From assembly GCF_963921235.1 (NCBI RefSeq), contig NC_086097.1, positions 30,878,001 through 30,942,000 on the forward strand: a stretch of 64,000 nt of DNA, given 5' to 3'. The stretch's first letter is position 1, and the number at the start of each line of letters is the position of its first letter. A program made the position numbers and the translations under genes. Positions 1,610 through 63,535 of this stretch are shown one piece after another. The DNA comes from Mobula hypostoma (Eukaryota). Under the pieces are notes generated by a model. It saw nothing but the letters and a program-made list of their open reading frames with translations, was not told the origin of the DNA and ran no database searches.

Positions 1610-1747
1610 AAGGGTCCTGATGAAAGGTCTCAGGCCAAAATGCCGACCCTTTATTCTTCTCCATAGATGCTGCGGGACCTGCTGAGTTCCTCCAGCATTT
1701 TGAGTGTGTTGCTCTGGATTTCCAGCAGCTGTACAATCTCCTGTGTT
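1610..1747 (+). mobile_element. Penelope-derived short repeat with degenerate hammerhead motif
   Basis: aagggtc-CTGATGA-aaggtctcaggcc-aaaatgcc-gaccctt, followed by the family body ccatagatgctgc...gctgagttcctccagcattttg. Confidence 0.75.
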
Positions 1748-1800
1748 GAAAATTCAGCAGGCTTGAGTTGAAGATGAATGAGGACAATGAGAACAGTGAC

Positions 1801-2030
1801 AATTAAAGATTAGCTTTATTTATCACACATACATCTAAACATAGAGTGAGATGTGTCGTTTTCATCAATGACTAACAAAGTATGAGGATGTGCTGGGGCA
1901 GCCCGCAAATGTCTCCATGCTTCCGGTGCCAACATAGCATGCCTATGACTTACTAAACCTAACCAGTGCAGGAATTGAAACCTAATTGGTGATCACTGGC
2001 GCTGTAAGGCATTCTGCTATCTGCTATGTG
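1801..2030 (-). mobile_element. SINE-like repeat with LINE-type 3' tail
   Basis: Related copies at about 30500-30670, 33830-34150, 37650-37810 and 63230-63575 (motif gacacttgcgggctgcccc...tgtgataaataaa). Confidence 0.6.
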
Positions 2031-2334
2031 AATAAGGACACTGAACAGGTAAAAACCTGTATCACAAAGTCAAGACAAAATACAGGATATTGGATTAGAA
2101 TAGGGCACATTCCACTTTTTAGAGAGCAGAGTGTGAGTTCAAGGAAGATGGCAGAGATTTAACACTGGAATGTTTTCAGAAGGGGCTGATATATATAGCA
2201 TAGAGTTAGAGAAGATCAAATACTTAAACCACACCTTTTTATGTTACTGGATAGAATGTGTTTTCTGCACTAGCAGTGTATAATCCATTCAAAAAGAGAA
2301 CTGTTAATATAGTGAAATATCAATGCTACATAGA

Positions 2335-2770
2335 GCGATAGGACATATCAGGGTGTGATCTGTGCTGGACTTACAGGCACTGCAGCTTACAATGTCGTGC
2401 CAGCCTTTCAACCTACTCCGTGATCAATCTAATCCTTCCACATAGCCTTCCATTTTTCTTTCATCCATGTCCCTATCCAAGTATCTCCTAAATGTCCTTA
2501 ATTTTTCTGCCTCTACTACCACACTGGCAAGGCATTCCAGGCACTCACCACTCCCTGGGTTAAAAAAAAACTATCCCTAAACTTTCCTCCACTCACATTA
2601 AAAAAATGTCCTCTGGTATTAGCCAGTGAAAAGGCTAATACAAAAAGGCACTGACTGTGTCCTCGATCTATGTCTCTTGTACACTTCTATCAACTCACCT
2701 CTCATCCTTTCGTTCCAAGAGAAAAGGTCACACAATCTTTCCTCAAAAGATATGCTCTCTAATCATGATA
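2335..2770 (-). mobile_element. CR1 3' fragment
   Basis: Reverse complement of the CR1 ORF2 C-terminus and 3' UTR seen in other copies. Confidence 0.65.
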
Positions 2771-2771
2771 A

Positions 2772-10841: not shown

Positions 10842-13800
10842 CAATAGACAATAGACAATAGGTGCAGGAGTAGGCCATTCGGCCCTTCGAGCCAGCACCG
10901 ACATTCACTGTGATCATGGCTGATCATCCACAATGTGTCCAGATCCTGCCTTATCCGCATAACCTTTGATTCCACTATCTTTAAGAGCTCTATCCATCTC
11001 TTTCTTGAAAGCATCCAGAGACTTGGCCTCTACAGCCTTCTGGAGCAGAGCATTCCAAACATCCACCACTCTCTGGGTGAAAAAGTTTTTCCTCAGCTCC
11101 GTTCTAAATGGCCTACCCCTTATTCTTAAACTGTGGCCTCTGTTTCTGGACTCACCCATCAGCAGGAACATGCTTCCTGCCTCCAGCGTGTCCAATCCCT
11201 TAATAATCTTATATGTTTCAATAAGATCCCCTCTCAGCCTTCTAAATTCCAGAGTATACAAGCCCAGTCGGGCCAATCTTTCGACATATGACAGTCCCGC
11301 CATTCCGGGAATTAACCTTGTGAACCTGCGCTGCACTCCCTCAATAGCAAGAATGTCCTTTCTCAAATTTGGAGACCAAAACTGTACACAGTACTCCAGG
11401 TGTTGTCTCACCAGGGCCCTGTACAGCTGCAGAAGGACCTCTTTGCTCTTATACTCAATTCCCCTTGTTATGAAGGCCAGCATGCCATTAGCTTTCTTCA
11501 CAGCCTGCTGTACTTGCATGCTTGCTTTCAGTGACTGATGTACAAGAATACCTAGATGTCATTGTACTTCCCCTTTTCCTCACTTGACTCCATTTAGATA
11601 ATAATCTGCCTTCCTGTTCTTACCACCGAAGTGGATAACCTCACATTTATCCACATTAAACTGCATCTGCGATGCATCTGCCCACTCACCCAGCCTGTCC
11701 AAGTCACCCTGCATTCTCATAACATCCTCCTCACATTTCACACTGCCACCCAGCTTTGTGTCATCGGCAAATTTGCTAATGTTACTTTTAATTCCCTCAT
11801 CTAAATCATTAAAATATATTGTAAACAGCTGCGGTCCCAGCACTGAACCCTGCGGTACCCTACTGGTCACCGCCTGCCATTCCGAAAGGGACACATTAAT
11901 CGCTACTCTTTGTTTTCTGTCAGCCAGCCAATTTTCAAAACATGTCAGTACTCTACCCCCAATACCATGTGCCCTAATTTTGCCCACTAATCTCCTATGT
12001 GGGACTTTATCAAAGGCTTTCTGAAAGTCCAGGTACACTACATCCACTGGCTCTCCCTTGTCCATTTTCATAGTTACATCCTCAAAAAATTCCAGAAGAT
12101 TAGTCAAGCACAATTTCCCCTTCGTAAATCCATGCTGACTCGGACCGATCCTGTTTCTGCTATCCAGATGTGTCCTAATTTCATCTTCTATAATTGACTC
12201 CAGCATCTTTCCCACCACCGACGTCAGGCTAACCGGTCTATAATTCCCTGTTTTCTCTCTTCCTCCTTTCTTGAAAAGTGGGACAACATTAGCCACCCTC
12301 CAATCCACAGGAACTGATCCTGAATCTATAGAACATTGCAAAATGATTACCAATGCGTCCATGATTTCTAAAGCCACCTCCTTAAGTATCCTGGGATGCA
12401 GACCATCAGGTCCCAGGGACTTATCAGCCTGCAGACCCAAAAGTCTATCCAACACCATTTCCTGCCTAATATAAATTTCCTTCAGTTCATCCATTACTCT
12501 CGGTCCTTTGGCCACTATTATATCTGGGAGATTGTTTGTGTCTTCCCTAGTGAAGACAGAGCCAAAGTACCTGTTCAACTCATCTGCCATTTCCTTGTTC
12601 CCCATAATAAATTCACCCGTTTCTGTCTTCAAGGGCCCAGTTTTGGTCTTAACTATTTTTTCCCTTTTCACATACCTAAAGGAGCTTTTACTATCCTCCT
12701 TTATATTCTTGGCTAGTTTACCTTCGTACCTCATTTTTTCTCCACGTATTGCCTTTTTAGTTACCTTCTGTTGCTCTTTAAAAGTTTCCCAATCCTCCGG
12801 CTTCCCACTCGTCTTTGCTATGTTATACTTCTTCTCCTTTATTTTTATACTGTCCATTACTTCCCTTGTCAGCCACGGCCTCCCCTTAGGATCTTTCTTC
12901 CTCTTAGGAACGAACTGATCCTGCACCTTCCGCATTATTCCCAGAAACACTTGCCTTTGCTGTTCCACTGTCATCCCTGCCAGGGTATTGTTCCATTGAA
13001 CTTTGGCCAGTTCCTCCCTCATAGCACCATAGTTCCCTTTGTTCAACTGTAATACTGACACTTCTGAGTTTCCCTTCTCCCTCTCAAATTGTAGATTAAA
13101 ACTTATCATATTATGGTCACTACCTCCTAATGGCTCCTTTACCTCGAGGTCCCTGATCAAATCCGGTTCATTGCACAACACTAAGTCTAGAATTGCATTC
13201 TCTCTGGTAGGCTCCAGTACAAGTTGTTCTAAGAATCCATCTCGGAAGGACTCCACAAACTCCCTTTCTTGGGGTCCAGTACCAACCTGATTCCTCCAGT
13301 CTACCTGCATGTTGAAATCCCCCATAACAACTGTAGCATTACCTTTGCGACATGCCAATTTTAACTCTTGATTCAACTTACACCCTACATCCAGACTACT
13401 GTTTGGGGGCCTGTAGATAACTCCCATTAGGGTCTTTCTACCCTTAGAATTTCTCAGTTCTATCCATACTGACTCTACGTCTCCTGATTCTCGCAAGGGA
13501 CTGAATATCATTCTTCATCAACACAGCCACCCCACCCCCTCTGCCCATCAGTCTGTCCTTTCGATAGGACGTATATCCTTGAATATTCATTTCCCAGGCC
13601 CTGTCCACTTGAAGCCATGTCTCTGTTATTCCCACATCATACTTACCAATTTCCAACTGTGCCTCAAGCTCATCCACTTTATTTCTTATACTCCGTGCAT
13701 TCATATATAATACTTTTAATTCATTACTCCCCTCACCTCCCATATCAATTCCTATTTCACTTGACCATACTGTACGATCCACTCTTGAGCTTTCTGCTCT

Positions 13801-20270: not shown

Positions 20271-20479
20271 TGTGCATATGCCAATAAACTCGAATTTTAA
20301 CTTTCCTCTGCATGGAATGGTTGGGCCAAACAACCTGCCTTGGTGCAGTATGACTCTATAACCACACTACTAATGTAGAGATAATCTTGCATTGATATTT
20401 CTTGCACATATTTTGTATCAAAATAATTTATTTTGAACTACTGTATATGAAAATATCATCTCTGCCTCCACAGACGCTG

Positions 20480-21255
20480 ATCTCCGGTTCGTACCGCAGG
20501 TTTCTGAGAGTAGGTCGATGACCCGGGAGAGACAACAGATTCCTCGGCTCCAGCCCATCCACAAACCCTGACCCTGCCGTAACCACAACCGCAATCCCAA
20601 CCTCAACACCTGGGGCCCAAAACTGGGATGCAGCCCTGGCCGGGTCCCAGGACACTCCTCGCGTCAGAGACCCGGACCCGCCACGAATCTGGGCCCCGGA
20701 GGCGGGACTCGGCCACATCCCCTCCACCACGAGCACCCACCTGAGTATAGTGGAGCCGCAGCGGGCGCAAGAAGCGGGAGTTGCGGCAGGGCCCGATTTC
20801 TACTTCACTCACTGACTCCATCTCCGCGTCACCGGCTCTCGGACCCGGCTGTCAGTCAGCGCGGGGGGCGGAGCACATCGGTAATCACTCAACGCTGGAG
20901 GCGGGGCTAACACATCTGTCACTCGACGCCGGTGGGAGGAGAGGTGGAGTGGAGGAACACCTGTCACTCAACACCGTAGGCGGGGATACGCGGTCGGGCG
21001 GGGCAGAGCTCTCGCTCCTGTCAGTCAGCTGGCGAGCCCGGCGTGTCGGTCAGGGCTCGCGATCAGCACAGGGGGCGGGGCTACCCGACCTGTCACTCTA
21101 CGGCGGGCTCGCGCTTCACCACCCGTCGGACAATGCCAGCCTCTCTTGGGCGGGGCTTGGGGCGGAGCTACCCTGACTGTCAGTCAGCTCGGGGGCGTGG
21201 TTATCTCACTTGTCAGTCTTCACTTGGGGGGCGGTGCCAAACTGCACCCCGGTCA
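20480..21255 (-). promoter_or_regulatory. CpG-island promoter of nudt14 with multiple GC boxes and TGASTGACAG motifs
   Basis: Sharp rise in GC and CpG content. Repeated GGGGCGGGGC/GGGCGGAG boxes. CTGTCASTCA at 20849, 20961, 21018 and 21177, plus near-matches. Spans the nudt14 ATG. Confidence 0.85.
20741..20821 (-). CDS. nudt14: nudt14 (UDP-glucose/UDP-sugar diphosphatase, Nudix hydrolase 14), first coding exon
   Basis: Translates to MESVSEVEIGPCRNSRFLRPLRLHYTQ (27 aa), closely resembling the vertebrate NUDT14 N-terminus as I recall it (human [27 protein letters not shown]). Strong Kozak context gagATGG. Ends at a phase-0 donor CAG|GTGGGT. Lies in the only CpG island of the window. Confidence 0.9.
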
Positions 21256-21263
21256 GCATTGTA

Positions 21264-21393
21264 AACGCAAGAAATTCTGCAGATATTGGAAATCAATAGC
21301 AACATACTCAAAGTGCTGGAGGAACTTAACAGGTCAGGCAGCATCTATGGAAATGAATAAACAGTTGACATTTCATGCTGAGACCCTTCTTCA
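21264..21393 (-). mobile_element. Penelope-derived short repeat
   Basis: Family body tgctggaggaactt...gcagcatctatgg...ttgacatttcatgctgagacccttcttcaag with a degenerate hammerhead on the minus strand. Confidence 0.7.
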
Positions 21394-21660
21394 AGCCAAC
21401 TTGTTGGAATTCCAAAGTGAAGAGATGATTGTCACTTATCATTTAATACTTTGCTGGCAACTGTAGGGGCTTTTATGGAAATGTCTTTCTTAGTAGCTAA
21501 CTTGATCACACCAACAGCCACCGTCTCATGTCACAGAGAGCAAGGTGACCAAGAAGTGGATATTCGGAAAAGTTCAGGACACAGACGGGCCTATTGGACA
21601 TCACGTGAACAATTGCTACATCTCCAGACTTAACGAATTTGAGGCCATCTTCCAACATCT

Positions 21661-23984: not shown

Positions 23985-25290
23985 CTACACATGATCCATA
24001 TCCCTCCATTCTCTGCATATTCATGCCCCTACCTAAAAGCCTCTTAAATGTCTTTATCATATCCGCTTCCACCAACACTCCTAAAGTACATTCCAGACAC
24101 TAACCACTCTCTCTGTAATAAAACTTGCCCTACACATTTCTTATAAATTTTCTCCCTCCCACCTTAAATCAGCAGCTGGAAAAAAGGATACTGGTTGCCT
24201 GCATTATTTATGCCTTTCATAACTTTATAAACTTCTATCAGGTCAGCCCTCACCTTCTGAGGCTCCACAGAAAACAACCCATTCAACAAGTAATACAGTG
24301 GAAAAACTCAATGGGTTGACCCTCTTAGTTCCCACAGCTGATTGTGTGTTGCTCCAGATTCCAGATCTGCAGATCTTGTGCCTCCAATTTGTCTAGCCTC
24401 TGTTTATAGTTCAGATCAGCCAATCCAGGTAGCAATCTGGTCAACCTGCTCTGCACCCTTTGCAAAGCCTCCACATCCTTCTTGTAATACAAGTTGATAG
24501 GGTGGCTAAGAAGGTATATGGTGTGTTGTCCTTCATTAGTTGGGGGGATTGAGTTCAAGAGCCATGATGTAATGTTACAGCTCTATAAGACTTTGGTTAG
24601 ATGACACTTGAACTGAATTGAGTTCAGTTTTCATTGCCTCATAATAGGAAGGATGTGGAATCTTTAGAGAGGGCGCAGAGGAGATTTACCAGGATGCTGC
24701 CTGGATGAGTGAGCTAGGGCTTTTCCCTTTGGAGCAAAAGAGAATGAGAGGTGACTTGATAGAGATGTATAAGATAAAGAGACTTTGATAGGGTGGACAG
24801 TCAGTGCCGTTTTCCCAGGGAAGAAATGACTAATACAAGAGGGCAGAATTTTAAGTTGATTGGAGGAAGGTATGGGGGGGCGGTGGATGAAATGTCAGAA
24901 ATAAGTTGTTTTTTTTAAACACACAGAGTCATGAGTGTGTAAGTTGCTCTGCTTGGGGTGATGGTAGAGGCAGTTACATTACAGACATTTAAGAGACTCT
25001 TAGATAGTCACATGGATGATAGAAAAATGGAGGGTTATGTGGGAGGAAAGGATTAGACTGATTGTGGAGTAGGTTAAAAGGTAAGCACAACATTGTGGGC
25101 TAAAGGGCCTGTGCCGTGCTCTGCTGTTCTATGTTCTAGTATCCCATCCCAGGCAATATCCTGATGAACCTTCTCTGAACTCTCTCCAACAGCATCATAT
25201 CCTTCTTAGAGTATGGCGGCCAGAACCACAGATAAGACCAAAGCAAAAATGTAACATGGCATCCCAGCTCTTATACTATGCTAGTTCATA
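23985..25290. mobile_element. Cluster of CR1 3' fragments in both orientations
   Basis: Minus-strand pieces at about 23985-24490 and 25140-25290 surround a plus-strand piece at about 24490-25138 (KDVEALQRVQ motifs). Confidence 0.7.
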
Positions 25291-26725
25291 ACAGTTTATC
25301 CTCCTCACAACTCCAAATGGAGATGGATTTTAAATTATCGCATGCCTGCTGTTGTTGCCTCCATTCCTCTGAAGATCAATATGTCCTCCTCCTCTGCTAG
25401 TGCTGGGGTTGATTCCAAAGATCAAAATGTGAAAATCGATTGAAGTCTGGAAGTGAAATGTGATGGCTGAAGTCTGGAGACTAGAAGCCCAGATGACTGT
25501 CTGTCCTGGAGTTTGAGATCTGTCTGTGTGCGTGGGCAAGTGGCAGGGAGGGTGGGAGGGGGAAAGAGGCTGGTTTGTTGCTTGTTGTGTTCTGATTTAT
25601 AAACACAAGAGATTCTACAGAGGCTGGAAATTCAGAATAACATGCACAAAATGCTGGAGAAACTCAGCAGGTCAGGCAGCATCTATGGAGAAGAATAAAG
25701 AGTCAACCTTCAAAGGATCTTGCACATGGTGTGTCGAGCTGCAGCTCCTAATGGACCGCGTTAGGGAACTGGAGATGCAGCTCAATGACCTTCATCTGGT
25801 CAGGGAGAACGAAGAGATGATAGAGAGGAGTTATAGGCAGGTGGTCACACCAGGGCCACATGAGACAGAGAAGTGGGTCACGGTCAGGAGAGAGAAGGGG
25901 AAGAGTCAGATACTGGAGAGTACCCCTGTGGCTGTACCCCTTGACAATAAGTACTCCTGTTTGAGTACTGTTGGGGGAGAACAGCCTACCTGGGGGAAGC
26001 AACAGTGGCCGTGTCTCTGGCACAGAGTCTGTCCCTGTGACTCAGAAGGGTAGGGAAAGGAAGAAAATGGCAGCAGTGGTAGGGGACTCTATAGTTAGGG
26101 GGTCAGACAGGCGATTCTGTGGACTCAAGAAAGAAACTCGGATGGTAGCTTGTCTCCTAGGTGCCAGGGTCTAGGACGTTTCAGATTGCATCCAAGATAT
26201 CCTGCAGTGGGAGGAAGAACAGCCAGAGGTCGTGGGACATATTGGTATCTATGACATAGGTAGGAAAAGGGAAGAGGTCCTGAAAAAACACTACAGGGAG
26301 TTAGGAAGGAAGTTGAGAAGCAGGACAGCAAAGGTAGTAATCTCAGGATTACTGCCTGTGCCACACAACAGTGAGTATAGGAATAGAATGAGGTGGAGGA
26401 TAAATGCGTGGCTGAGGGATTGGAGCAGGGGGCAGGGATTCAGATTTCTGGATCATTGGGACCTCTTTTGGGGCAGGTGTGACCTGTACAAAACGGATGG
26501 GTTGCACTTGAATCCCAGGGGGACAAATATCCTGGCAGGGAGGTTTGCTAAGGCTACTGGGGAGGGTCTAAACTAGAATTGTTGGGGGGTGGGAACCAAA
26601 CTGAAGAGACTGGAGAAGAGACAGTTGGCTCACAAATAGAGAAAGCTTGTAGACAGTGTATGAGGAAGGATAGGCAGGCGATAGAGAAGGGACGCGCTCA
26701 GACAGACGCAAGGAGTATTGTGAAC

Positions 26726-39434: not shown

Positions 39435-41617
39435 CAGTGCCTATAAAAGTATTCACCGCCCCCCCCCAGAAGTTTTACAACATTGAATCACAATGGATTT
39501 AATCTGGCTTTACACTCAAAAACTTCTATAGTTGTACTGCGGAGAGCATTCTGACAGGCTGCATCACTGTCTGGTATGGAGGGGCTACTGCACAGGACCG
39601 AAAGAAGCTGCAGAAGGTTGTAAATCTAGTCAACTCCATCTTGGGCACTAGCCTACAAAGTACTCAGGACATCTTCAGGGAGCGGTGTCCCAGAAAGGCA
39701 GCATCCATTATTAAGGACCTCCAGCACCCAGGGCATGCCCTTTTCTCACTGTTACATCAGGCAGGAGGTACAGAAGCCTGAAGGCACACACTCAGTGATT
39801 CAGGAACAGCTTCTTCCCCTCTGCCATCTGGTTCCTAAATGGACATTGAAGCTTCAGACACGACCTCGCTTTATTTTTAAATATATAGGACTTCAGTTTT
39901 GCACATTTAAAAACAATCTATTCAATATACATAATTGATTTACTTGTTTATTTATTATTATGTTTTATTTTTTTCCTCTCCCTCTGCTAGATTATGTATT
40001 GCATTGAACTGCTGCTGCTAAGTTAACAAATTTCACATCACATGCCGGTGATAATAAGCCTGATTCTGACTTTTTGATGCTGATCAACAGAAAAGACTCT
40101 TTCATGTCAAAGTGAAAACAAATTTCTACAAATTGGTCTAAATTTATTGTGATTATTAAACACATAATTGTTTGCATAATTACTCACCCTTTTAAGTCAG
40201 TATTTAGTAGATACACCTTTGGCAGCATTTACAGAGTCTGTGTGAACAGGTCTCTATCAGCTTTGCACATCTGGACACTGCAATTTTCCCCTATTCTTCT
40301 TTACAGAACTGTTCAAGCTCTGTCAGATTGCATGGGGATCGTGAGTGAACAGCCCCTTTCAAGTCCAGCCACAAATTCTCAACTGGACTGAGGTCTGGAC
40401 TCTGACTTGGCCACACTAGGATATTAACTTTATTGTTCTTAAACGATTCCTGTGTAGCTTTGGCTTTATGCTTGGGGTCATTGTCTTGCTGAAAATAGAC
40501 CTTCCCCTAAGTCACAGTTCGCTTGCAAACTGCATTAGGTTTTCCTCCAGGATTTCCCTGTATTTTTGCTACATTCATTTTACCCTCCATCTTCACAAGT
40601 CTTCCAGGGCCAGCTGCAGTGAAGCATCCTCACAGCATGATGCAGCCACCACCATGTTTCACAGTAGGGAAGGTGTGTTTTAGATAATGTGCAGTGTTTG
40701 TCTTATGCCAAACATAGCGTTTAGTCTGATGGCCAAAAAGCTCAATTTTGGTTTCATCAGACCACAAAACCTTCTTCCAGCTGACTTCAGAGTCTCCCAC
40801 ATGCCTTCTGACAAACTCTAGCCAAGATTTCATGTGATTTTTTTTCAACAATGGCTTTCTCTTTGCCACTCTCCCATAAAGTTGTGACTGGTGAAGCACC
40901 CAGGCAACAGTTGTTGTGTGCACAGTCTCTCCCATCTCAGCCACTGAAGCTTGTGACTCCTCCAGACCTGTCATAGGTCTCCTGGTGGCCTCCCTCACTA
41001 GTCCCCTTCTTGCACGGTCACTCAGTTTTTGAGGATGGCCTGCTCTACGCAGATTTACAGCTGTTACCATATTTTTTGCATTTCTTGATAATTGACTTAA
41101 CCACACTCCAAAGGATATTCAGTGACCTGGAAATTTTCTAGTATCCATCTCCTGGCCTGTGCTTTTTAATAACCTTTCCATAGAGTTGCTTGGAGTGTTC
41201 TTTTGTCTTCACAGTGTAGTTTTTGCCAGGATACTGACTCGCCAGTAGTTGGACCTTCCAGACACAGCTGTATCTTTACTATAATCAGTTGAAGCACCTT
41301 GACTGCACACAAGTGATCTCTATTTAACTAATTATGTGACCTCTTAAACCAATTGGCTGCACCAGAGATGATTTGGTTTGTCATATTAAGGGAGGGTAAA
41401 TACTTATGCAATCAATTATTTTTGTGTTCTATATTTGTAATTAATTTAGCTCACTTTGTCAAGATCTCTTTTCACTTTGACACAAAAGAGTCTTTTTCTG
41501 TTGATCAGTGTCATAAAAGCCAAATTAAATCCACTGTGATTCAATGTTGTAAAATAATAAAACATGAAAACTTCCAGGTGGCGGCGGGGGGGGGGGGAAT
41601 ACTTTTTAAGGGAACTG
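39435..41617 (-). mobile_element. Tc1-like DNA transposon with decayed DDE transposase; contains a Rex-type insert at about 39510-40070
   Basis: TA-cagtgcctataaaagtattcac left TIR and gaatactttttaagggaactg-TA right TIR. Transposase frames WKKVLWSDETKIELFG, KHGGGCIML, QQDNDPKH and WPSQSPDLSPVENLW. Confidence 0.9.
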
Positions 41618-41694
41618 TAAAAGCAAGAAGATAAAACTGAGGCTTTATAACACACCAGTCAGGCCGCATTTGGACTATTGTCAACAGTATGTGC

Positions 41695-44600
41695 TATCTT
41701 TCCCATCTCAGCCACTGAAGCTTGAAACTCCTCCAGAATTGTCATAGGTCTCCTGGTGGCCTCCCTCACTAGTCCCCTTCTAGCCTGGTCATTCAGTTTT
41801 GAGGACGGCCTGCTCTAGGCAGATTTACAGCGTGCCATATTCTTTCCTTTTCTTGATGATTGACTTAACTGTACTCCAAGGGATATTCAGTGACTTGGAA
41901 ATTTTCTTATATCCGTCTCCTGACTTGTGCTTTTCACTGAGTTTCTTGGAGTGTTCTTTTGTCTTCAAGGTGTAGTTTTTGCCAGGATACTGGCTCAACA
42001 GCAGTTGGACCTTCTTCTTCTTCTTGTGTTGTTTTATGGCGGTTGGCAAACCAGCTTTAAGGTGCATTACAGCCACCTGCTAGACTGGAGTGTGGATCGT
42101 TGGATAAACAGGAGAAGGGAAAAGAATTGCATTCCTATATTCTGAATAATAAACCAGAGTCTTTCAGATACTTCATGATATAGGTTTGTATTTCCCTTGA
42201 AATCCCAATTAAAGTATCTTCTATACCCACAGCAGTTTATCTTAAGCGCTCCTATCATCTTCACTGTTTCTCGTTGGTACTTCTTACTTTTTAACAATAC
42301 CTGTTCAACTGTTTCTGTTGATTACACTGTTCACACAACCCAGTTGGATGTTTCCCTATTTTATGTGATGTGTAATTAAGACTTGTGTGTCCAATTCTTA
42401 AACAATTGATGATCACTTCTGTCTTTCTATGTCCACTTGACAATCTTTTATATCTGACTTGCCTCTGTATTTTGTACAGTTGACTCCTTGTTTCACTCTC
42501 ATCCCAATGTTTCTGCCATGTCTCCTCAATACACGTTTTAATAATGCTCTTGACTTCCACTTTGCTTAGAGGGATCTGGACCTCTATTATAGACAATTTG
42601 AGTGATCGTTTAGCTATACTGTCCACCTTTTCATTGCCCTCCACTCCACAATGAGCAGGAACCCAAAGAAAGCTTACTTCTACCCCATTTTTGGTCAATG
42701 TATATAACTTGCATAGAATCTCCAATAAAATATCCTGTCTACTTTCTGATTTTCTTGATTTGATAAAGGTTAATGCAGACAAACTGTCTGAACAGGTTAC
42801 AGCCTTTTTGACATTATTTTCTTCTATCCAAGCTAATGCACACAAAATTGCCATTAATTCTGTTGTATACACTGATAAATGGTTTGATGTTCTTTTCTTG
42901 ATACTAGTTTTGCGCTGAGGAATGTAGTTTGCAATACCTGTGTGGCCAGAGCTAGGGTCTTTTGATCCATTCGTAAATATTACAAGTTCGTTTCTAAAGT
43001 ACAGATCTATATATTCTTGTACTATCAGTTTGATTCCATAGTTAGACTTCTTTTTTAAAAGTTGTTGCAGGTTTTTATCCACTGTATGCATTGTAAAGAG
43101 CCATGGAGGAACATCAGATATTGGAACTGTAGGGCTATATTCCATTTTCGTGTAGACCTTATTTTTGTGCTGCTCCATAACCGATCCATCCAAAGCTATT
43201 ATAACTTGACTTATTATGTTCCCAGCAGTCTTTTAATATAGCTTTAGCTGGATGTGAGTAATTATGCCCCATGATGTTAACCCAATAATGTAGCATTGGC
43301 TTTATTCTTCTAAGTCTTAATGGTATTTCCCCCATTTTGACTTGAAGAGCTGATATAGGTGATGTTCTGAATGCACCACTACATATCCTGAGGGCCTGAG
43401 CTTGCTGAACATCCAGCATTTTTAAATTACTGTCTGCAGCTGACATGTAAGCTACACTTCCATCATCCAATGTAGCCCTCATTAGAGCTTGATAAATATT
43501 TAATAGCGATATCCTGCTCGCACCCCAGTCCTGTGCAGCAAGGCCCCTCAATAAGTTGTTTTTTTTACATTTGTTTGTAATTTTCTCAATTTGCTTTTTC
43601 CATGTAAGTTTCTCATCAACTAACAAACCAAGGAACCGAATTACTTTTACCTGCTCTAATTTTTGTTCATATAATTTCACGGAAACTGGTTTGTGATTTC
43701 TTAAGAAACATATCACTTGCGACTTATAGACAATTTGAAACTCCATTTATTTGCCCACTCCTCCACTTTATTTATTGCATCTTGCATTTTCCTTTGTGTA
43801 TAAATTATTTTTCCCCTCACCCATAAAGCCCCATCATCTGCATGTAAGGATTTCCTCACACTATGTTCAGCTTGCACAAATATGTCATTTACCACTATGG
43901 AAAATAGTAATGGACTGCAGACACTACCTTGTGGTGTTCTGTTTTCAACCAAATATGTCCTGGAGTACTCTGTTTCCACCTTGACTTGAATTGTTCGACC
44001 AAAAAGGAAGTCTAGAGCCTAGTTATATAATTTTCCTTCCACCCCTAATTCTTGCAATTTGATTAACACTCCCTCTTTCCAGAGCATGTCATATGCCTTT
44101 TCTATGTCAAAAAATACCGCCAGGACCCAACAAACTTTATTTGTTTGAGCCTTCCTAATTTCAGATTCCAAGCTAAGTATTGAATCTACTGTAGTTCTTC
44201 CTTTATGAAAACCGCTCTGGTAGGGAGAAATAAGACTTATTTTTTTCTAGAAAGTATGTAAGCCTATCAGTTATTATTCGTTCCATAAGTTTACCTAGCT
44301 GTGAAGTTAGTGCAATTGGTCTATAATTTGTTGGGTCTGATAAATCTTTACCAGGTTTTAATATTGGAACAATAACAGAATGTTCCCATGCAGATGGTAT
44401 TTTACCTATTTTCCATATTTTATTAAACAGTCTCTGTAGAACTAGAAGTGCACCTTTTGATAAGTGCTTCAGCATTATACCCCATACTTGATCCTTCCCA
44501 GGAGAAGTTGGCTGCGCATTCATAATAGCTCTTTCTATTTCTGTTATGCTAAAAGGTGTATCCAGCACTTCTTCAGATGTTGTTCTTTTGTCCATAATTC

Positions 44601-44997
44601 CTGAATTTTGCTTAAGCCTCTCCTCCCTTTGCTGTCTAGCCTCAGCTGTCAGCAGTTGGACCTTCCAGATAGAGGTGTATTTTTACTACAATCAGTTGAA
44701 ACACCGTGACTGCACAGGTGATCTCCATTTAACTAATTATGTGACTTCTGAAACCAATAGGCTGCACCAGTGATGATTTGGTGTGCCATGTTAAAGGGGG
44801 TGAATACTTATGCAATCAATCATTTTTTGTTTTATATTTGTAATTAATTTAGATCACATTGTAGACATCTGATTTCACTTTGACGTGAAAGAGTCTTTTT
44901 CTGTTGATCAGTGTCAAAAAAAGCCAAATTAAATCCATTGTAAAACAATAAAGCATCAAAACTTCCAAGGGGGAGTGAACACTTTTTATAGGCACTG
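41695..44997 (-). mobile_element. Second, partial copy of the same Tc1 family (transposase N-terminus and right TIR), split by a LINE
   Basis: KTKEHSKK...GYKKISKSLNIPWSTVKSIIKK. TIR gtgaacactttttataggcactg ends at 44997. Confidence 0.85.
42015..44649 (-). mobile_element. I-group (Nimb-like) LINE with RT and RNase H, 5'-truncated
   Basis: RT frames (NYRPIALTS, TPQGSVCSPLLF, HADDGALW). RNase H motifs (IFTNGSK, ELMAI, SDSLSAL, WVPAHCGVEGNEKVD). (GAA)n tail. 16-bp TSD cagcagttggaccttc at 41999-42014 and 44650-44665. Confidence 0.9.
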
Positions 44998-45011
44998 TTT
45001 GTTGTCACCTA

Positions 45012-48740: not shown

Positions 48741-48850
48741 GAGAGTCTGCAGATGCGGGAAATCTTGAGCAACACACACAAAATGCTGGAGGAACTCAGC
48801 AAGTCAGGCAGCGTCTATGGAGGGGAATAAACAGTCAACGTTTTGGGCCC
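48741..48850 (-). mobile_element. Penelope-derived short repeat
   Basis: caaaatgctggaggaactcagcaagtcaggcagcgtctatgg...cagtcaacgttttgggcc. Confidence 0.75.
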
Positions 48851-50448
48851 CCTTTGTTATTTTTTTGTTCTTCTTTGAGGAAAATTGTGCTTAATTTATT
48901 TTTAAGTTATGTTTTTGACGTGAATGCTGCTGCAAGTAAGTTTTTCATTGCAATTGTGCATACACAGACTTGTGCAAATGACAATAAACTCCATTTTAAC
49001 TTTGACTATTGTATCAATTTCCACCAGCTCCCCTGGCAGCCCATTCCAAACACCCACCACTCTCTGTGCAAAACAAAACCTTGCTCCACACTTCCACTTT
49101 ATGCTTCCCTTTCTCACCTTAGAATATAGAATTTAAAATCTAATTTATTATCATTGACTTATATTCATGAAATTTCTTGTTTGGTGGTAGTACAGTGTAA
49201 TACCTTAAATGTATGTCCTCTGGTATTTGACATTTTAAAAAATACCTTTTTTTCGCAGGCCTTTCCAATCCAATGTTCCCAATTACACCCATGTTTCCAA
49301 TTCACCTACTAACACATATGTCTTTGGAATGTGGGAAAACAATGGAGAAACCGGGAGAGATCCATGTAGTCACAGGGAGAACTAGAGCAATGATGAGTGA
49401 CAATGAACAATCCCGAATCTTGAAAATATAACTTCTCGTAGATTCTATTTTATTTCTTTATTTTCTTGTGAATGCCTGCAAGAAAGTGAATTTCAAGGTA
49501 TGTAGTAACATACACATACATTGATAATAAATTTGACTGATTTTGACTTTCCGTTTCTTAGCCAGCAGGATTGGATGAGGGGAAGTTGGGAGTTAAGTTG
49601 CAGGTCAGGGAGAAGGAGTTCGAGGTGCCAAACGGCTGGGCACTCAATGGAGCGGTGGAGTAACCCGCGGCAATTGTTCAGCAAAGGAATCACTCATCCA
49701 GATGGGAAAACAGAGGATAGGAAACTAGGTTGTTTTAAGCACACACCTCCTCGTCCAGGAAGCATGCTGGTACTTTATACGACTATCAGTGTTGTGGCAC
49801 ATTTCATCCTGGGTGCAATTTATCAGTGCCACAGCTGCAGAAATCTTTCACTAAAGCCTTTCAGGGTTGCAAGTGCTTTCACAATAACATATTGTTCTGT
49901 GCTAAAATGTTTATTTAGAAGTAAATCAATTGTATAAAGTCATTTCCGGCTCTTATGCACAGTTTAGCTTTGGACAGGATGCTGCGGGCAGGAGATTAGA
50001 AAGGGGGTTTCAGTAATGGAATAGTTTGTCACCAATAGGCTATGTTACAGCAAGTTCAATGTTCAAATTACATTTATTAAGTACTTCACAGTCTACCCTG
50101 TCTAAGCCTCACAGTATTTTATAAAACCCTGTCAGGTAAATTTATTAACAAAGTATGTATGCATATATTACCATATACCACTTTGAGATTCATTTTCTTG
50201 CAGACATTTACAGGAAATAACAAAATACAATATAATTTATTTAAAACTATACACAAACAAAGACTGACAAAGAGCAAATGTGCAAAAGAAGACAAATTGT
50301 GCAATATTTTAAAAAAGTAATACTGAGAGCATGAGTTGTAAAGGGTCATTGAAAGTGAGTCTGTAGATTGCAGAATCAGTTCAGCATTGCGGTGAGCAAA
50401 GTTATCCACACCGGTTCAAAGGAGCCTGATGGGTGTTGGGTAATCATA

Positions 50449-50650
50449 GACACAAGAGGTACTGCAGATGCTGAAAATCTAGAGCAATACACGCAATGTA
50501 CTGGAGGAGCTCAGCAGGTCAGGCAGCATCTGTGGATGAGAATAAACACTCGACGTTTCCAGCCAAGACCCTTCATCAGGAGTCGACTGTTTATTCCCAT
50601 CCACAGATGCTGACTGACCTGCTGAGCTCCTCCAGCACATTGTGTGTATG
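50449..50650. mobile_element. Penelope-derived palindromic repeat with a hammerhead core on the minus strand (50548-50583)
   Basis: Inverted arms. Minus strand reads actc-CTGATGA-agggtcttggctg-GAAA-c-GTC-gagt. Confidence 0.8.
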
Positions 50651-50974
50651 GCTGTAGGGTAATAACTGTTCCTGAGCATTACAATCATGAATAGTCAGGA
50701 TAGAAACAGTGGGATGGAGGGGTGGAGGTAGGGGGATATGATAGTGGTAAAATCAGGTTTATTATCCCTAACTTACATGTCAGAGAAGATTTACAAGCAT
50801 GTTGCCAGGACTGGAGGGACTGGGTTACAGGGAGAGATTAGTCAGTATAGGTCTTTCTACATAGAACATAGAACAGCACAGCACAGTACAGGCATTTCAG
50901 CCCACAGTACTGTGCCAATCTTTTAACCCTTCCCTTCCATGTAGCCCTCCATTTGTTTACAAGCATGGGCAGTA

Positions 50975-52499: not shown

Positions 52500-52657
52500 A
52501 AAAGATATTGGAGGAACTCAGCAAATCGGGTAGCTTCCGGCCAAGACCATATCGACTGTTCATTCCCCTTTGCAGATGCTCCCTGACCTGCAGAGTTCCT
52601 CCAGAACTTCTTATGTTTTACTCAAGGTTTCTAACATCTGCACAAACTCTTGTGTTT
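52500..52657. mobile_element. Penelope-derived palindromic repeat, decayed
   Basis: tggaggaactcagc at the left end and gcagagttcctccag toward the right end. Confidence 0.65.
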
Positions 52658-53465
52658 GCAGAAAGGACGTGGAGGCTTTGGGGAGGGTGCAGAAGAGGTT
52701 CACCAGGATGTTGCTTAGACTGGAGTGTATTAACTGGAGGGAGAGTTTAGACAAACTTGGGCTGTTTTCTCTGGAAATCAGGGCTGAGGGAAGACCTGAT
52801 CGAAGTTTATAAAATTATTAGAGGCGTGAATGGGTCGACAGTTAGAGCCACTTTCCAGGGAGGAAACATCAAATACTGGAGTGCACAGCTTTAAGATGAG
52901 AAAGGGAGAGTTTAAAGGAGATGTGCAGGCTGAGAGTTTTACACAGAGAGCGGCGGATGTCTGGTACAGACTGCCGGGGGGAGCGAGGGTGGTGGGGGTG
53001 GTGGAAGCAGGTGCAGCAGAGGTGTTTAAGAGGCTGTCAGTCAGACACATCAACAGGTGGGGAAATGGATCGCCTACTGGCAAAAGAGATCTAGTTTATT
53101 CAGGCCAAATGGCCTGTTTCTATGCTGTACTGTTCTCAGCTGGACAGGACACAGACTCCATCGTGATGTAGGTTAGGAACAAGAAGCAAGGATTTCAGAC
53201 CTCCGGTGTCATGGTCTAACACCTCCCCGCCCTGCCAGACCAGGGGGTATCCATGGCAATGTGCTGCTGCCTCTGTGGGTGGGTCGCCATCTCTACCCTG
53301 GCAATGGACAGGGTGAACAGAAATGCCAGCGTCAACCAGACAACAAGTTTAGAGAGACATGGGTCAGACACAGCCAAATGGCACTAGCTGAGATGGACAC
53401 CTTGGTCAGCCTGGACCAGTTGGGCCAAAGGGTCAGAGGGCACAGTGTCAGACCAGAAGGACATC

Positions 53466-56894: not shown

Positions 56895-59370
56895 TGATGA
56901 AGGAAATGTGTAAAAATAATCGGGCTGTTGTCATCAGGGATTTCAACTTCCCAAGTATAAACTGGGACCTTCTTAGTGCAAGGGGTTTAGATGGGGCAGA
57001 ATTTCTAATGTGTACCCAGGAGGGTTTATTTAATCAATATGTGGACATTCAAGTGACCAGACCTGGCACTGGGCAATGAGCCCAGTCAGATGACTGACTG
57101 TTCAGTGGGTGAGGAGTTAGGGAAAGGTGACCACAAATCATCGACTTTCAGGAGAGCTCTAGATAAGGATAGGTATGGACCTTGGGTAAAGTTTTAATTT
57201 GGAGTAGGGGAAATTATGAGGGCAATAGGCAGAAGCTAAGAAGAGTTAATTGGGAACACATTTTTTCTGGCAAGTCCACATCAGACATGTGGAGAGTGTT
57301 GAAAGATCAATTGCACAGAGTACAGGAAAGGTGCTCTGTTAGAAGAAAGGACAGGGATGAAAAGATTAGAGAACCTGGGAGGTCCAGAGTGGAACACACA
57401 CAAAATGCTGGAGGAACTCAGCAGGCCGGGCAGCATCTATGGAAAAGAGTACAGTCGATGTTTTGGACCAAAACCCTTCGGCAGGATGGCAGGTCCAGAG
57501 AGGTGATGAAGTTAGTCAAGAAGGAAAAGGAAAAGTATATAAAGCTTCAAAAGTTAGGATCAAATGGAGCACATGAGGAGTAGAAAGAAACCAGAAAAGA
57601 ATTAAAGAAGGGAATTAGGAAAGACAGGAAGGACCTTGAAAAGTCCTTGCATCAACGTGAATCCCAAGGCATTCTGTACATACATGAAGAGCAAGATGAT
57701 AACTAGGGAGAGGGTAGGACCACTCAAGGATAAAGAGGAGAACATTTGCTTGGATGTGGGGAATGTGGGTGAGGTACTTAATGAGTAGTTTGCTTCGGTG
57801 TTTACCAAAGAAAAGGATATGGAGGACCAGGAGACAGTGCTGAGTATATAAATATGTCAGGGCATTTAGAGGTCAAGGAGGAGAGTGTTGGGCCTCCTAA
57901 TGGGTATTAAGGTGGTTAAGTCCCCACGCTTTACCCCGGGTTATTGAAGGAGGCACGAGTCGAGATTGCTGGGCCCTTGGCCAGTATTTCCATGTCCTCT
58001 CTAGCCACAGGCAAGGTCCCAGAAGACAGGCGAGTGGCAAATGTTGTACATTTATTCAAGGAGGGAACAAGACAAAATCCTGGGCATTATATGTAGGGAA
58101 ATTGCTGGAGAAAATTCTTAGGGATAGGATGTATGAGCATTTGGACACCCATGGCCTAATTAGGGAGAGTCAGCATAGCTTTGTGTGGGGCAGGTTGTAC
58201 CTTACCAACATGATTGTTTTTTGACAAGGTGAAGAGAGAGATTGATAAGGGTAGGACAATGGATGTTGTCTACATAGATTCTAGTAAGGTTTTTGTCAAT
58301 GTCTCTCATAGGAGATTAATCCGGAAGATTAAGATACATGGGATCTCCGGCAAATTGGCTGTTTGGATTCAGAACTAGCTTGCACATAGAAGAGACAGGG
58401 TGGTGGTTGAAGGGGCTAATTCAAGCTGGAGGTCTGTAATTAGTGGAGATCCACAGGGATCTGTGCTGGGACATCTGCTGTCTGTGATGTATATAAATCG
58501 CCAGGATGAAAATGTAGTTGGGTGGGTTAGTAGGTTTGTGGATGATACCAAGATTGGTGGAGTTGTGGATTGTGTAGAAGACCGGTAAAGAATACAGCAC
58601 GATATAGATCAGTTGCAGATATGGGTACAGAAATGGAAGATGGAGTTTAGCCCAGTAAAATACGAGGTGTTGCATCTCAGTAGGGCGAATGCAAGGACAC
58701 AGTACACTGTCAAGGGTATGATCCTTATTGTTGTTGCTGAGCAGAGAGATCTCGGGATCCAAGTTCATTGCTCCTTGAAAGTGGCTGTACAGGTGGATAG
58801 AGTGGTTATGAAGGCTTATGGAATGCTCGCTTTTATTAGTCGAGGCAGCAAGTTCAAAAGTCGAGGTTATGTTGGAACTTTATAAAACTCTGGCTAGACA
58901 ACATTTGGAGTATTTAGTACAGTTCTGGCTGCCTCACTGTAGCAAAGATGTTGAGGCTTTGGAGAGGGTGCAGAAGGGGTTTACCAGGATGCTGCCTGGT
59001 TCGGAGGGCATGTACTATCACGAGAGGCTAGTAAACTTGGTTTGTTTTCTTTGGAGTGACGGAGGCTAAGGGGAAATCTGATGGAGGTTTATAAGCTTAT
59101 GAGAGGCATAGTTAGAGTAGGCAGGTGGTATTTTTTTCCCAGAGTTGAAATGTTAAATACCAGGGGGCATGCATTGAAGGTGAGAGGAGGTAGGTTTAAA
59201 GGGGCTGTGAGGGGTAAGTTTTTTTTATGCAGAGTGTGGTGGATGCATGGAGTGCACTGTCTGGTGTGGTGGTAGAGGCAAATGCATTGGAGGTTTTTAA
59301 GAGACATTTAGGTTGGCACATGAATGTGAGGATGTTGGAGAGATATGGACATTGTGCAGGTAGGAGGGAT
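56895..59370 (+). mobile_element. Decayed CR1 ORF2
   Basis: DFNFPSINWD, PQGSVLG, FVDDTKIGG and KDVEALERVQ frames. Confidence 0.88.
57390..57490 (-). mobile_element. Penelope-derived short insert with 10-bp TSD
   Basis: aggtccagag at 57380-57389 and 57491-57500 flanks the family sequence inside a CR1. Confidence 0.85.
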
Positions 59371-60619: not shown

Positions 60620-60822
60620 AACTGCAAATGCAGAAAACCTGAATAAAAACAGAAAATGCTGGAAACACTCAGCAGGTCAGACAGCACCCGTGGGGAGAGA
60701 AACAAAGTGAATGATTCAGAGCAAAGAATGAGTCTGCAGCCCGGAACACTAATCTGTTTCCCTTCCCACTGATGTGGTCTGTCTTGTGAAATATTTCCAG
60801 CAATATAGGCTTTTATTTTCAA
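60620..60822. mobile_element. Old Penelope-derived palindromic repeat
   Basis: gaaaatgctggaaacactcagcaggtcag at the left and aatatttccagcaat at the right. Confidence 0.55.
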
Positions 60823-61264
60823 AAAGGGCGCGTGGAAGTGGCCACGGTTTAAAAGTGTAGGTTCACCAACAAGGCAGGTGAAATGAGTGAGTATTTTTCT
60901 TCCAGAAGGTGGTGAGTCTTTGGAACTTTCTTCCTTGGGGAGTGGTGGATGCGGAAGTTTTTAATGCAGGGTAGATAGCCTTGGTAAACAATGGGTTGGG
61001 AGGTCAGGAGTGTGGAGTTGAGTTTATAATCTGATCAGTCACGATCTTGTCGAGTGGTGGTGAAGACCTAAAATGGCTCCTGCTCCTAATTGACTGTTTA
61101 TAAACCTGTCACTCAACCACATGCTGGGTATTGGTATTGGTTTTGGTATTTGGAATACTTATTGTCTGCCATTCTGGTCACCTACCTAGGAAAGGTATCA
61201 ATAAAATTGTAATACAGAAAAAATTTACAAGTTTGTTGCCGGGACTTGAGTTAGAGAAGGGTTG

Positions 61265-61482
61265 CAACACACATCAAAGTTGCTGGTGAACGCAGCAGGC
61301 CAGGCAGCATCTCTAGGAAGAGGTACAGTCGACGTTTCAGGCCGAGTCAGTTAGTCCTGACGAAGGGTCTCGGCCTGAAACGTTGATTGTACCTCTTCCT
61401 AGAGATGCTGCCTGGCCTGCTGCGTTCACCAGCAACTTTGATGTGTGTTGCTTGAATTTTCAGCATCTGCAGAATTCCTTAT
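61265..61482 (+). mobile_element. Young Penelope-derived hairpin insert with 15-bp TSD
   Basis: 83-bp inverted arms (61264-61346 and 61369-61451). TSD gttagagaagggttg at 61250-61264 and 61483-61497. Confidence 0.9.
61352..61389 (+). ncRNA. Minimal type-I hammerhead ribozyme motif
   Basis: UAGUC-CUGACGA-A-GGG-UCUCGG-CCU-GAAA-C-GUU-GAUUG. The core is intact, stems I and II can pair, and a palindromic ACGU replaces stem III. Confidence 0.7.
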
Positions 61483-61939
61483 GTTAGAGAAGGGTTGAGT
61501 AGGTTAGGATTTTATTCCCTGGAGCATAGGAGGATGAAGCGAGATTTGATAGAGGAATACAAAATTATGGTGGGTTTTCCCACTGAGAACTGAGAACTAG
61601 AACTAGAGGTGATGGGTTAAGCGTGAAAGGTGAAATGTTACTGGGGAACATGAGGTGGGATCATCTTCATTCAGGGAGTGATGAGGGTAAGGAATAAGCA
61701 GCCAGCAGATGTGCTGGATTGGGTTTGATTTCTACATTAAAGAGAAATTTGGATAAGTACGTGAATGGGAGGGATATGGAGGGCTATGATCTGGGTGCAG
61801 TTTGATGGGACTCGGCAAAGTAACAGTTCAGCATGGACTAGATGGGCAGAAAGGCCTTCTTCTGTGCTATAGTGCTTAATGACTTTATTGTCAGATACAG
61901 TGAAAAGCTTGCATTGCATGCTGTTCATATGCAGTGCAT

Positions 61940-62570
61940 ATGAACAGGAATGGGAGGAGAGAGAGCAGCGCGCTGCGCGTGCACAGCTCTCCGGTGAAAA
62001 CTGATAATGTATCCACTAAATAGGGGCCGTGGACAATTCTGATTTGATGGAGACAGACGTGAAAGCACAGAGGAACATCTGGAGAAATTTCTGAAACGCC
62101 TGTTTGCTTCTTTCGTTACCGCGCGATCGTGAATCTTCCCGAGGGAAGGCCTCAAAATCCTCAGCTTTGCCTGCTGTTGGCGACCGAGATTGAGGTTGAA
62201 TTGCTCGGATAGAGATGGTGCTCAGTACTCGGTGTCGGAGAGCTGATCGGAGCTCGAAGTTTTCGGACGACTCAGAGTCGGACTGTGGTCGGGTATGGCA
62301 GGGAGAGTTTTTCTTCCTTCTCCCTTCTGCGTGAGATGTGGGACATTTGACAGACTTTGAACTTTTTACTGTGCTCACGGACTTCTTCATCAAGTTATGG
62401 TATTGTTGCACTGTTGTAACTATATGTTACAATTATGTGGTTTTGTCAGTTTTTTCAGTCTTGGTCTGTCCTGTGTTTTGTGATATCACACCGGAGGAAT
62501 ATCGTATCATTTCTTAATGCATGCATTACTAAATGACAATAAAAGAGGACTGCGTGTCATCATAATCTAA
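61940..62570 (+). mobile_element. CpG-rich non-coding SINE-like element with LINE-type tail, inserted in a Rex fragment
   Basis: No recognisable coding content. Ends aatgacaataaaagaggactg...ataatctaat. Followed by minus-strand Rex sequence (ORF 62573-62962). Confidence 0.55.
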
Positions 62571-63398
62571 TGTCAGGTAAAATAGGGTAAAACGACAACC
62601 ATGCAGAGTAAAGTGTAAAGGCTACTGTAAAGGTGCAGTGCGGGTAGACGACAAAGTGCAAGATCATTACGAGGCAGATTGTGAGGCCGAGTCCAACTTT
62701 TAGTACAAGAAGGGCCATTCAAGTGACTGATAACAACAGGATAGGAAACGTCCTTGAGCCCGGTGGTACGTGCTTTCAGGCTTTCAGGTCTTCTGCCCGA
62801 CGGGAGAGGGGAGAAGAGAGAATGTCTGGGATGGGTGGGGTCTCTGATTACGTCGGCTGCTTTACTGAGACAGTGGGAAGTGTAGACAGAGGCCATGGAG
62901 GGCAGGCTGGTTCCCGGGATGTGCTGAGCTGTGACTACAACACTGTATTTTCTTGCAGTCACGCGCAGAGCAGTTGCCGTACCAAGCCATGGTACATCCA
63001 GACAGAATGCTTTCCACAGTGCTTCAGTAAAAATTGGTAAGAGCTGACGGGGGGACGTGCCGAATTTCTTTAGCCCGTAGACCCTGAGGATGAGGACTAG
63101 TGACGCCGCCCCCCCCCCACCCCCAGTTCAGCATGTGTGTGAGTCTGAGAGCCCAGGGCCAAGGACTGGAGGTGGCCTGGCCTAGGATTAGAGGCCTCTC
63201 TGTGTCTGTGTGTGTGAGTGGGTGGACGGGCTGCTCTTTCTGTATTGTTTTATTGTTGTTCTTACTTGTGTTGTTCTGCTGAATATTGTGGACGTGCTAC
63301 ATTGGCGCTGGAATGTGTGGTGACACTTGTGGGCTGTCCCCCGCACATCTCTAGATTTTGTTGGTTGTTAATGCAAACAACACGTTTCACTGCATGTA

Positions 63399-63535
63399 AC
63401 ACACATAAAAGGGTCTCGGCCTGAAACGTCGACTGCACCTCTTCCTAGAGATGCTGCCTGGCCTGCTGCGTTCACCAGCAACTTTGATGTGTGTTGCTTG
63501 AATTTCCAGCATCTGCAGAATTCCTGTTGTTTGCA
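63399..63535 (+). mobile_element. Young Penelope-derived insert with 14-bp TSD
   Basis: Near-identical to the right arm of 61265-61482. TSD tttcactgcatgta at 63385-63398 and 63536-63549. Confidence 0.88.

Follow-up and report, generated by a model that had tools for sequence, protein, structure and literature searches.

Short inserts with a minimal hammerhead motif in the genome of Mobula hypostoma as probable truncated products of a Penelope-like element

A stretch of 64,000 nucleotides from Mobula hypostoma (NCBI RefSeq assembly GCF_963921235.1, contig NC_086097.1, positions 30,878,001 to 30,942,000 of the forward strand; the whole of this stretch is called the window, and its first letter is position 1) harbours a dispersed family of short inserts, and the family carries a minimal hammerhead ribozyme motif. 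These inserts are, with a probability estimated at roughly 85%, products of retrotransposition, truncated at the 5' side and in many cases inverted, of a single abundant Penelope-like element (PLE) that bears an endonuclease and whose pseudo-long terminal repeat (pLTR) carries the known minimal hammerhead. They are a real but ordinary feature, because nearly all copies in the window are motif-less and none begins at the predicted cut site. The motif, the dimer model and the insertion anatomy have all been described previously, and the kind of element is already in print (relevant sections of PMC4209133, PMC8557442 and PMC11167929).

The window is repeat-rich animal DNA with 44% GC, in which CR1-like and other fragments of long interspersed nuclear elements (LINEs), as well as Tc1 pieces, are numerous. 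A model-free self-BLAST of the window recovered the repeat at every one of the 14 places named in the original prediction. The family profile was built from 11 window copies; matches to those 11 seeds are guaranteed by construction, those to the other nine segments are not. At E <= 10 the profile gave 21 matches, 20 of them with E < 0.01 (the weak one, at 60737-60804, has E 0.22), and the reversed-window control gave three, with a best E of 5.4. The 20 segments make up 15 insertions, namely the 14 named places and an old fragment on the forward strand at 24317-24375 (insert P, E 0.0011) that lies 3' of the ribozyme, and the predicted figure of about 15 copies of one family is confirmed with this one addition. 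Together they cover 1,916 bp, or 3.0% of the window, at about one insertion per 4.3 kb, with a median pairwise identity of 72% (150 pairs). Neighbouring arms lie head to head in the profile search; a tandem-repeat search of the window returned eight rows with the family in none of them, which means no tandem array, and partial tandem source copies with direct pLTRs are likewise absent from the window.

Matching public contigs numbered 31,791 in one DNA run (X1) and 28,381 under a second species label (X5), and the first count, from a single run, bears out the expectation of a very large number of copies in the genome. Two runs presumed to be RNA gave 3,039 and 2,065 matching contigs, from which neither transcription nor strand nor ends can be read. 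Literature searches returned, among the papers listed, no description of this particular family, which may be listed in Repbase or Dfam, or in the supplements of PMC4209133 and of the preprint cited below.

The hammerhead motif and its decay

Positions within the family are counted from the G of the stem I strand immediately 5' of CUGANGA, with the predicted cut after position 31. The family reads, in order, stem I, CUGANGA, an extra A, a stem II of 4 bp, GAAA, CG, UH and the stem I partner, and this order matches the list of features given for PLE minimal hammerheads in the pertinent part of PMC4209133. A minimal type-I hammerhead in which a palindromic ACGU replaces helix III, as had been proposed for these repeats, is supported at the level of sequence.

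Intact copies are few. The exact CTGANGA...GAAA pattern occurs nine times in the window, three times within the family and six times outside it. Eight segments span the core: CUGANGA is kept in five, both boxes in three and all 11 core letters in two (50450-50581 and 61354-61484), of which the second alone also retains all four stem II pairs; in the first, the first stem II pair is broken. It was thus generous to say that several copies contain the full motif, which is present in the family but has a full core in two of the eight and stem II as well in one. The sole complete minimal hammerhead of the window lies at 61352-61389 on the forward strand and consists of a stem I of 5 bp, CUGACGA, a bulged A, a stem II of 4 bp, GAAA, CG and UU, with the cut predicted after 61384. 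Elsewhere the core is broken at G12 and U16.1 (insert A, 1614-1757, forward strand), has lost C3 (insert B, 21258-21394, reverse strand) or has lost U16.1 with both boxes kept (insert G, 38223-38330, reverse strand).

The minimum free energy fold of 61352-61389 forms both stems and is no stabler than its shuffles (z 0.02). Two other copies fold otherwise as monomers and one barely folds, again with no gain over shuffles. A swapped dimer can be drawn through the 4-bp ACGU helix at -6.3 kcal/mol, as compared with -22.5 kcal/mol for an inactive duplex; these are nearest-neighbour energies, which ignore the tertiary fold of the core. A search of the window with Rfam at E <= 10 gave 10 matches, none of them a hammerhead and none at the gathering score, and the best (mir-3926 at 61292-61423, far below that score) is the hairpin of an inverted pair, N.

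Decay is concentrated at the four CpG sites, with 35 changed letters out of 104 as compared with 119 out of 801 in the downstream sequence (p 1e-5), and 6 of 12 arms have A in place of the catalytic G12; the reference letters at positions 23-24 were chosen by hand, and the arms are not independent. The same dependence applies to the non-CpG part of the core, which is slightly better kept (7 of 104 letters differ, p 0.023). The majority letters of the aligned public contigs retain the 3' half of the motif: at loose contig ends, GAAAC and GUC/GUU-GACUG are kept (434, 455 and 73 contigs, among the matches listed), from which it follows that the source elements carried the motif.

Some 20 nt past the cut, positions 37-56 (e.g. 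1650-1669) comprise a pyrimidine run, ATAG and ATG, and have the look of a splice acceptor; the stretch is changed in a young subfamily of the inserts, and introns exist in some PLE pLTRs. Neither of two ATG codons was accepted as the start of an open reading frame (ORF). The one at position 54, whose frame runs to the long end of the repeat in the majority, meets a stop in the young subfamily, and the one within CUGAUGA opens a frame of just 21 codons.

Insert ends, paired arms and the site of cleavage

The 3' ends of the 20 segments fall, by alignment column, at 122-134 (n = 11), 101-109 (n = 7) and 88-91 (n = 2). Two classes of end, long and short, lie about 35 nt apart (33-36), and the interval corresponds to the 'tail' of PLEs. 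The two ends are found some 70 and 103 nt downstream of the predicted cut; in pair N, where target-site duplications (TSDs) anchor them, they lie at about 99-100 and at 132-135. Among the solo inserts, long ends are carried by A, B and I (48741-48854, reverse strand), which start at the 5' edge of the hammerhead, at position 4 and at position 10, respectively. Short ends are carried by G, by H (38506-38556, reverse strand), a fragment 3' of the cut, and by L (57390-57486, reverse strand), whose 97 bp run from the 5' edge of the hammerhead to the short end between 14-bp TSDs with one mismatch (57376/57487).

In all five clear head-to-head pairs (C/D, E, J, K and N), exactly one arm is long and one is short, for which about 0.03 would be expected, by hand arithmetic, if arms were drawn independently. 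In N, the left arm (61265-61342, reverse strand) starts near position 16 and ends short, while the right arm (61343-61482, forward strand) ends long, and exact 15-bp TSDs flank them at 61250-61264 and 61483-61497. The left arm of J (50444-50581, reverse strand) has a long end and is one of the two with 11 intact core letters; its right arm (50582-50652, forward strand) begins 3 nt before the predicted cut and has a short end, with an 11-bp TSD bearing one mismatch at 50434/50653. Pair K joins a short left arm (52502-52540, reverse strand) to a long right arm (52541-52660, forward strand). In E, both arms include the end of the untranslated region (UTR) described below: the left (31968-32073, reverse strand) continues through a decayed hammerhead to a short end, and the right (32074-32177, forward strand) reaches a long end with the hammerhead region (67 nt, by alignment to copy F) deleted. 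The arms of these four pairs are adjacent, and those of C/D, long arm C at 25599-25710 (reverse strand) and short arm D at 30413-30490 (forward strand), are parted by a single nested CR1-like LINE. Their TSDs lie on the forward strand at 25585-25598 and 30491-30504, 14 bp long with one mismatch, the left one TG-rich. The likeness of the two arms in N (82/87), J (68/75) and C/D (63/77) exceeds nearly all other comparisons.

Two further pairs are tentative and also comprise one long and one short arm. M (60621-60817) is an older, diverged head-to-head pair with its left arm at 60621-60699 on the reverse strand and a weak right arm on the forward strand. O (63399-63533, forward strand) has a main arm from position 10 to the long end, flanked by exact 14-bp TSDs (63385/63536), and a possible inverted mini-arm of 10 nt at 63399-63408, with 10 of 12 letters matching. 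N (61262-61485) and O, 2 kb apart and with different TSDs, are separate insertions of one young subfamily; they are 95-99% alike, have a 2-nt deletion in common with insert L, and close stem II with a G-U pair. In the right arm of E (32074-32177), the UTR end is joined straight to about position 70, with short imperfect homology at the joint.

Five of the 15 insertions (C/D, J, L, N and O) have TSDs, 11-15 bp long, that exceed background, and at most 1 of 400 random placements reaches them, in a test that is post hoc in that its search windows were placed after the TSDs were first seen. At J and N the match continues into the element at one end, by about 5 nt (50429-50444/50648-50663 and 61245-61264/61478-61497), which suggests short homology between target and element end.

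Heavy 5' truncation of the inserts, as predicted, is supported by these data. On the other hand, ribozyme cleavage does not appear to set their ends: the start lies upstream of the cut in 16 of 21 arms and within 2 nt of it (positions 30-34) in none, with 6 of the 21 start positions assigned by eye, and among the 3' ends of the segments none is located at the cut. The 5' ends range from -342 to 62, and the nearest to the cut, that of the right arm of J at 29, is most simply a fold-back junction. These counts contradict, for the window, the proposal that the RNA end is defined by ribozyme cleavage. Since the ends ignore the cut site, the templates of the inserts would have been uncut or re-sealed RNA, which the sequence cannot separate. 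The description of the family as retrozyme-like is not supported either, because a retrozyme is by definition built of tandem units that each contain a ribozyme, and the family has no such array in the window.

A Penelope-like source and competing explanations

The Penelope-like origin that had been proposed is supported. Insert F begins near 32690 and comprises, on the forward strand, the terminal 13 codons, with the stop, of what is probably a PLE GIY-YIG endonuclease ORF (32694-32735; QPDSMNTDSSNFQ before the stop codon at 32733-32735), a pyrimidine-rich 3' UTR portion of the pLTR (296 nt, 32736-33031), which is single-copy in the window except for its final 20-30 nt, and the repeat itself (33032-33139), with a decayed hammerhead that has lost G12 and a short end. 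The hammerhead-bearing pLTR lies downstream of the ORF stop. The junction of the copy at 32692-33133 with a Penelope ORF end, as first described, stands in that 13 codons and a stop are present, and falls short in that the 22-aa frame of the insert gave no match to Pfam.

Public contigs show F to be repeated. In run X1, contig depth is 12-21 in the flank, 3,340 at the bin 32688-32709 and 34 behind the insert, and this jump at the start and drop after the end indicate that the ORF end itself is repeated. Summed depth reaches 244,000-580,000 over the ribozyme and the part downstream of it. Contig depth is not copy number and is read only as meaning that the family is very abundant, with the ORF end far rarer than the tip. 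The profile under X5 has the same shape, and the whole F stretch is multi-copy in both. A deep block of UTR lies at 32886-32929, and joints in other contigs tie UTR pieces to the ribozyme side. The source PLE is probably of the Neptune type: the spacing P-D-S-M-N equals that of the Neptune P-x-G-L-N endings (HPQGLNE, EPGGLNR, TPRGLNE) and is unlike the Poseidon ending KPSLNR (C-terminal endings from Fig. S2 of PMC8557442), a comparison of five residues only, made by eye.

By analogy with the Poseidon element of the anole (Anolis carolinensis; experiments reported in PMC11167929), the RT/GIY-YIG protein of the PLE, with its reverse transcriptase (RT), would bind RNA 3' of the hammerhead and nick the target, and reverse transcription would begin at one or the other of two sites within the RNA. 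On uncut RNA, cDNA synthesis would mostly halt after 100-140 nt; both nicked strands may prime, one per site, and the two cDNAs would then join head to head. Inverted arms could alternatively arise from self-priming on an antisense template, as discussed in PMC3846280. Any action of the ribozyme would be as a dimer or together with the protein of the element, in tandem source copies, and the solo inserts in the window are likely inert fossils.

The tested features place the family with the hammerhead-bearing pLTRs of endonuclease-bearing PLEs. The minimal hammerheads of metazoan PLEs, among them fish Xena, Poseidon and Neptune, as treated in sections of PMC4209133, share with it a type-I core without helix III, an extra nucleotide between 9 and 10.1 and a palindromic 15.2-16.2, and they number in the thousands, mostly solo and associated with truncated PLEs, with some close pairs on opposite strands. 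Stem II has 4 bp in the window and 7-8 bp in the schistosome families, and the G10.1-U11.1 pair of the young subfamily is unlike the PLE motifs covered there; two of the three supplementary files of that paper contained no shark or skate terms. The typical layout of endonuclease-bearing PLE inserts in the passages of PMC8557442 and PMC3846280 that deal with it, a 5'-truncated copy with an inverted 5'-truncated arm, a head-to-head junction, a 30-40 bp tail on a single end and TSDs, is that of the window, but insert length in the window is very small (about 50-450 bp), with TSDs of 11-15 bp as compared with 8-10 bp in rotifers. The anole Poseidon, in the corresponding sections of PMC11167929, also has 3' ends at two sites 3' of the hammerhead, demonstrated there to be internal RT start sites, and shows no sign of cleavage setting the insert ends; the window family probably belongs to a different clade. 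Non-LTR retrozymes resemble it in being small, non-coding, equipped with a type-I hammerhead and kin to PLE pLTRs (portions of PMC7229834 and of bioRxiv 10.64898/2026.07.22.740005), and have been reported in the sole chondrichthyan sampled in that preprint. Retrozymes, however, are head-to-tail tandem units, each with a ribozyme, that are expressed as circles (same portion of PMC7229834), whereas the window inserts are solo or head to head and mostly lack an intact core. The family thus has neither the tandem units nor the cleavage-set ends of retrozymes.

Its value lies in size, since tens of thousands of matching contigs per run amount to a large natural record of PLE integration. The family could serve to test, in a second clade, the paired use of two RT start sites in inverted inserts, and to probe why 5' ends crowd at the ribozyme.

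Several observations weigh against derivation from such a PLE. No GIY-YIG match was obtained with Pfam in any of 153 window ORFs (150 of the 225 with at least 75 aa, plus three at insert F; the 75 omitted lie mostly in LINE repeats), the matches being to RT, AP endonuclease, SGNH, RNase H and Tc1, and a scan of 447 ORFs with PLE protein motifs gave only unspecific hits to a histidine pattern. An autonomous partner with RT and GIY-YIG was not found in pattern scans of viral contigs (0 + 0), metagenome contigs (0 + 0) and prokaryote genomes (0 + 3), nor in a protein search with the in-frame read-out of the UTR at 32736-33083 (38 candidates of lengths 63-203, none at E <= 0.01); the three loci, all actinobacterial, were taken as chance, as only 23-25 profile positions match around the pattern. 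With neither partner nor GIY-YIG match, the PLE link rests on the 13 codons and the architecture, and membership among PLEs is shown by architecture and motif, as read from the DNA, and not by the enzyme. No conserved open frame could be demonstrated in the family, whereas the ORF of the anole Poseidon, according to PMC11167929, starts at ribozyme stem II. The core as a whole is no better kept than the sequence downstream (13/116 against 119/801 letters differ, p 0.33). In E (19/26) and K (26/39) the two arms resemble each other no more closely than unrelated copies do, and the short arms of both end at 88-91 and not at 100. Ten of the 15 insertions lack a TSD better than chance, which limits the claim of 10-15 bp TSDs in several copies to the five with 11-15 bp.

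The 5' ends form the last of these points. As many as 13 of 20 lie between -8 and 29, an unevenness that plain truncation does not predict; per nucleotide at risk there are 13/361 ends in this interval and 3/534 in 30..60 (p 0.001). The sample is small, the upstream UTR can be compared with one full copy only, and the clustering falls to p 0.028 when starts at the edge of the profile are left out. It is conceivable, though doubtful, that the folded, uncut hammerhead signals the RT of the PLE to stop or to switch template and so yields the standard inserts of 100-140 bp. Were this true, the motif would shape integration products without cleaving, inserts would begin in the upstream part of the ribozyme, and the genome would be filling with ribozyme-tipped mini-inserts.

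The clustering might also be produced by a separate non-autonomous mini-element, akin to a short interspersed nuclear element (SINE), that starts at the 5' edge of the ribozyme, has its own transcript and is mobilised in trans by the PLE protein. Seven of 20 arms start between -8 and 4, the density of ends in -8..29 agrees with it, and mobilisation in trans is possible for pLTR sequence on its own (PMC3846280, in the part concerned). Such an element is nevertheless improbable. The 5' ends are not fixed but range over some 400 nt: F and both arms of E continue into the UTR, and N and O start at -8, about 16 and 10, which means that 5' ends vary even among near-identical copies. Moreover, the upstream flanks show neither a tRNA-like head nor a fixed leader, the weakening of the clustering away from the profile edge applies here too, and the deep UTR block indicates that many genomic copies extend further upstream.

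Circular templates are likewise a poor prospect. Tandem transcripts would be cut and the monomer re-ligated into a circle, whose sealed junction the RT reads through, as proposed in the discussion of PMC4209133 and restated in a passage of PMC6765202. The inserts expected under this model are those that uncut linear RNA would also give, with sequence upstream of the cut included, but no observation in the window requires the model, and uncut RNA is the dominant in vitro template of the anole element in the assays given in PMC11167929. The model bears on the template alone and does not conflict with the PLE origin favoured here.

That the cut defines the RNA end, with the inserts as copies of retrozyme-like units, is very unlikely. 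The majority motif of the family is intact at the loose ends of public contigs, the start of the arm at 50582 is 3 nt away from the predicted cut, the starts of three arms of 39 nt or more lie downstream of it at 42-53, as does that of insert P at 62, and dimeric PLE hammerheads cleave weakly in vitro (experiments in PMC4209133); against this stand the positions of the insert ends and the lack of tandem units set out above, and the anole element, whose ribozyme mutants insert normally and for which no RNA-seq reads stop at the cut (results in PMC11167929). The idea that another LINE, or a SINE, has this repeat as its tail, with a hammerhead match by chance, can hardly be credited: the missing Rfam match, the fold of 61352-61389 at z 0.02 and the six exact two-box patterns outside the family would suit it, but all features of the PLE minimal hammerhead (PMC4209133, part) are present in order, the one-sided tail and inverted arms are there, the repeat has entered CR1 copies and has been interrupted by one, with no fixed link to them, and a 38-nt motif without helix III need not, presumably, reach Rfam models or beat shuffles.

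Neighbouring repeats in the window

The CR1-like LINE nested in pair C/D (25711-30412, forward strand) is near full-length, lies exactly at the junction of the inverted pair, and encodes an SGNH ORF1, an AP endonuclease and an RT, with Pfam matches at 26175, 27232, 27557, 29104 and 29368. Within it lies a 387-bp insert (28720-29106) that is 91% like 31222-31582. The stretch 40633-44998 contains a LINE that encodes an RNase H domain (42294-44682), set amid duplicated pieces of Tc1/Sleeping Beauty type (40633-42079), whose repeats pair 40926-41258 with 41697-42014 and 41243-41576 with 44650-44967. A perfect 36-bp tandem repeat of 5.3 copies occupies 35310-35500 within a LINE fragment. The stretch at 20420-21257, which adjoins insert B, is GC-rich and has long overlapping open frames, with no Pfam match and almost no self-match in the window. 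Young LINE copies occur in pairs at 10848-12730/18375-20253 (94%) and 22632-23693/54082-55182 (91%), and an open frame of 644 aa is retained at 11580-13514.

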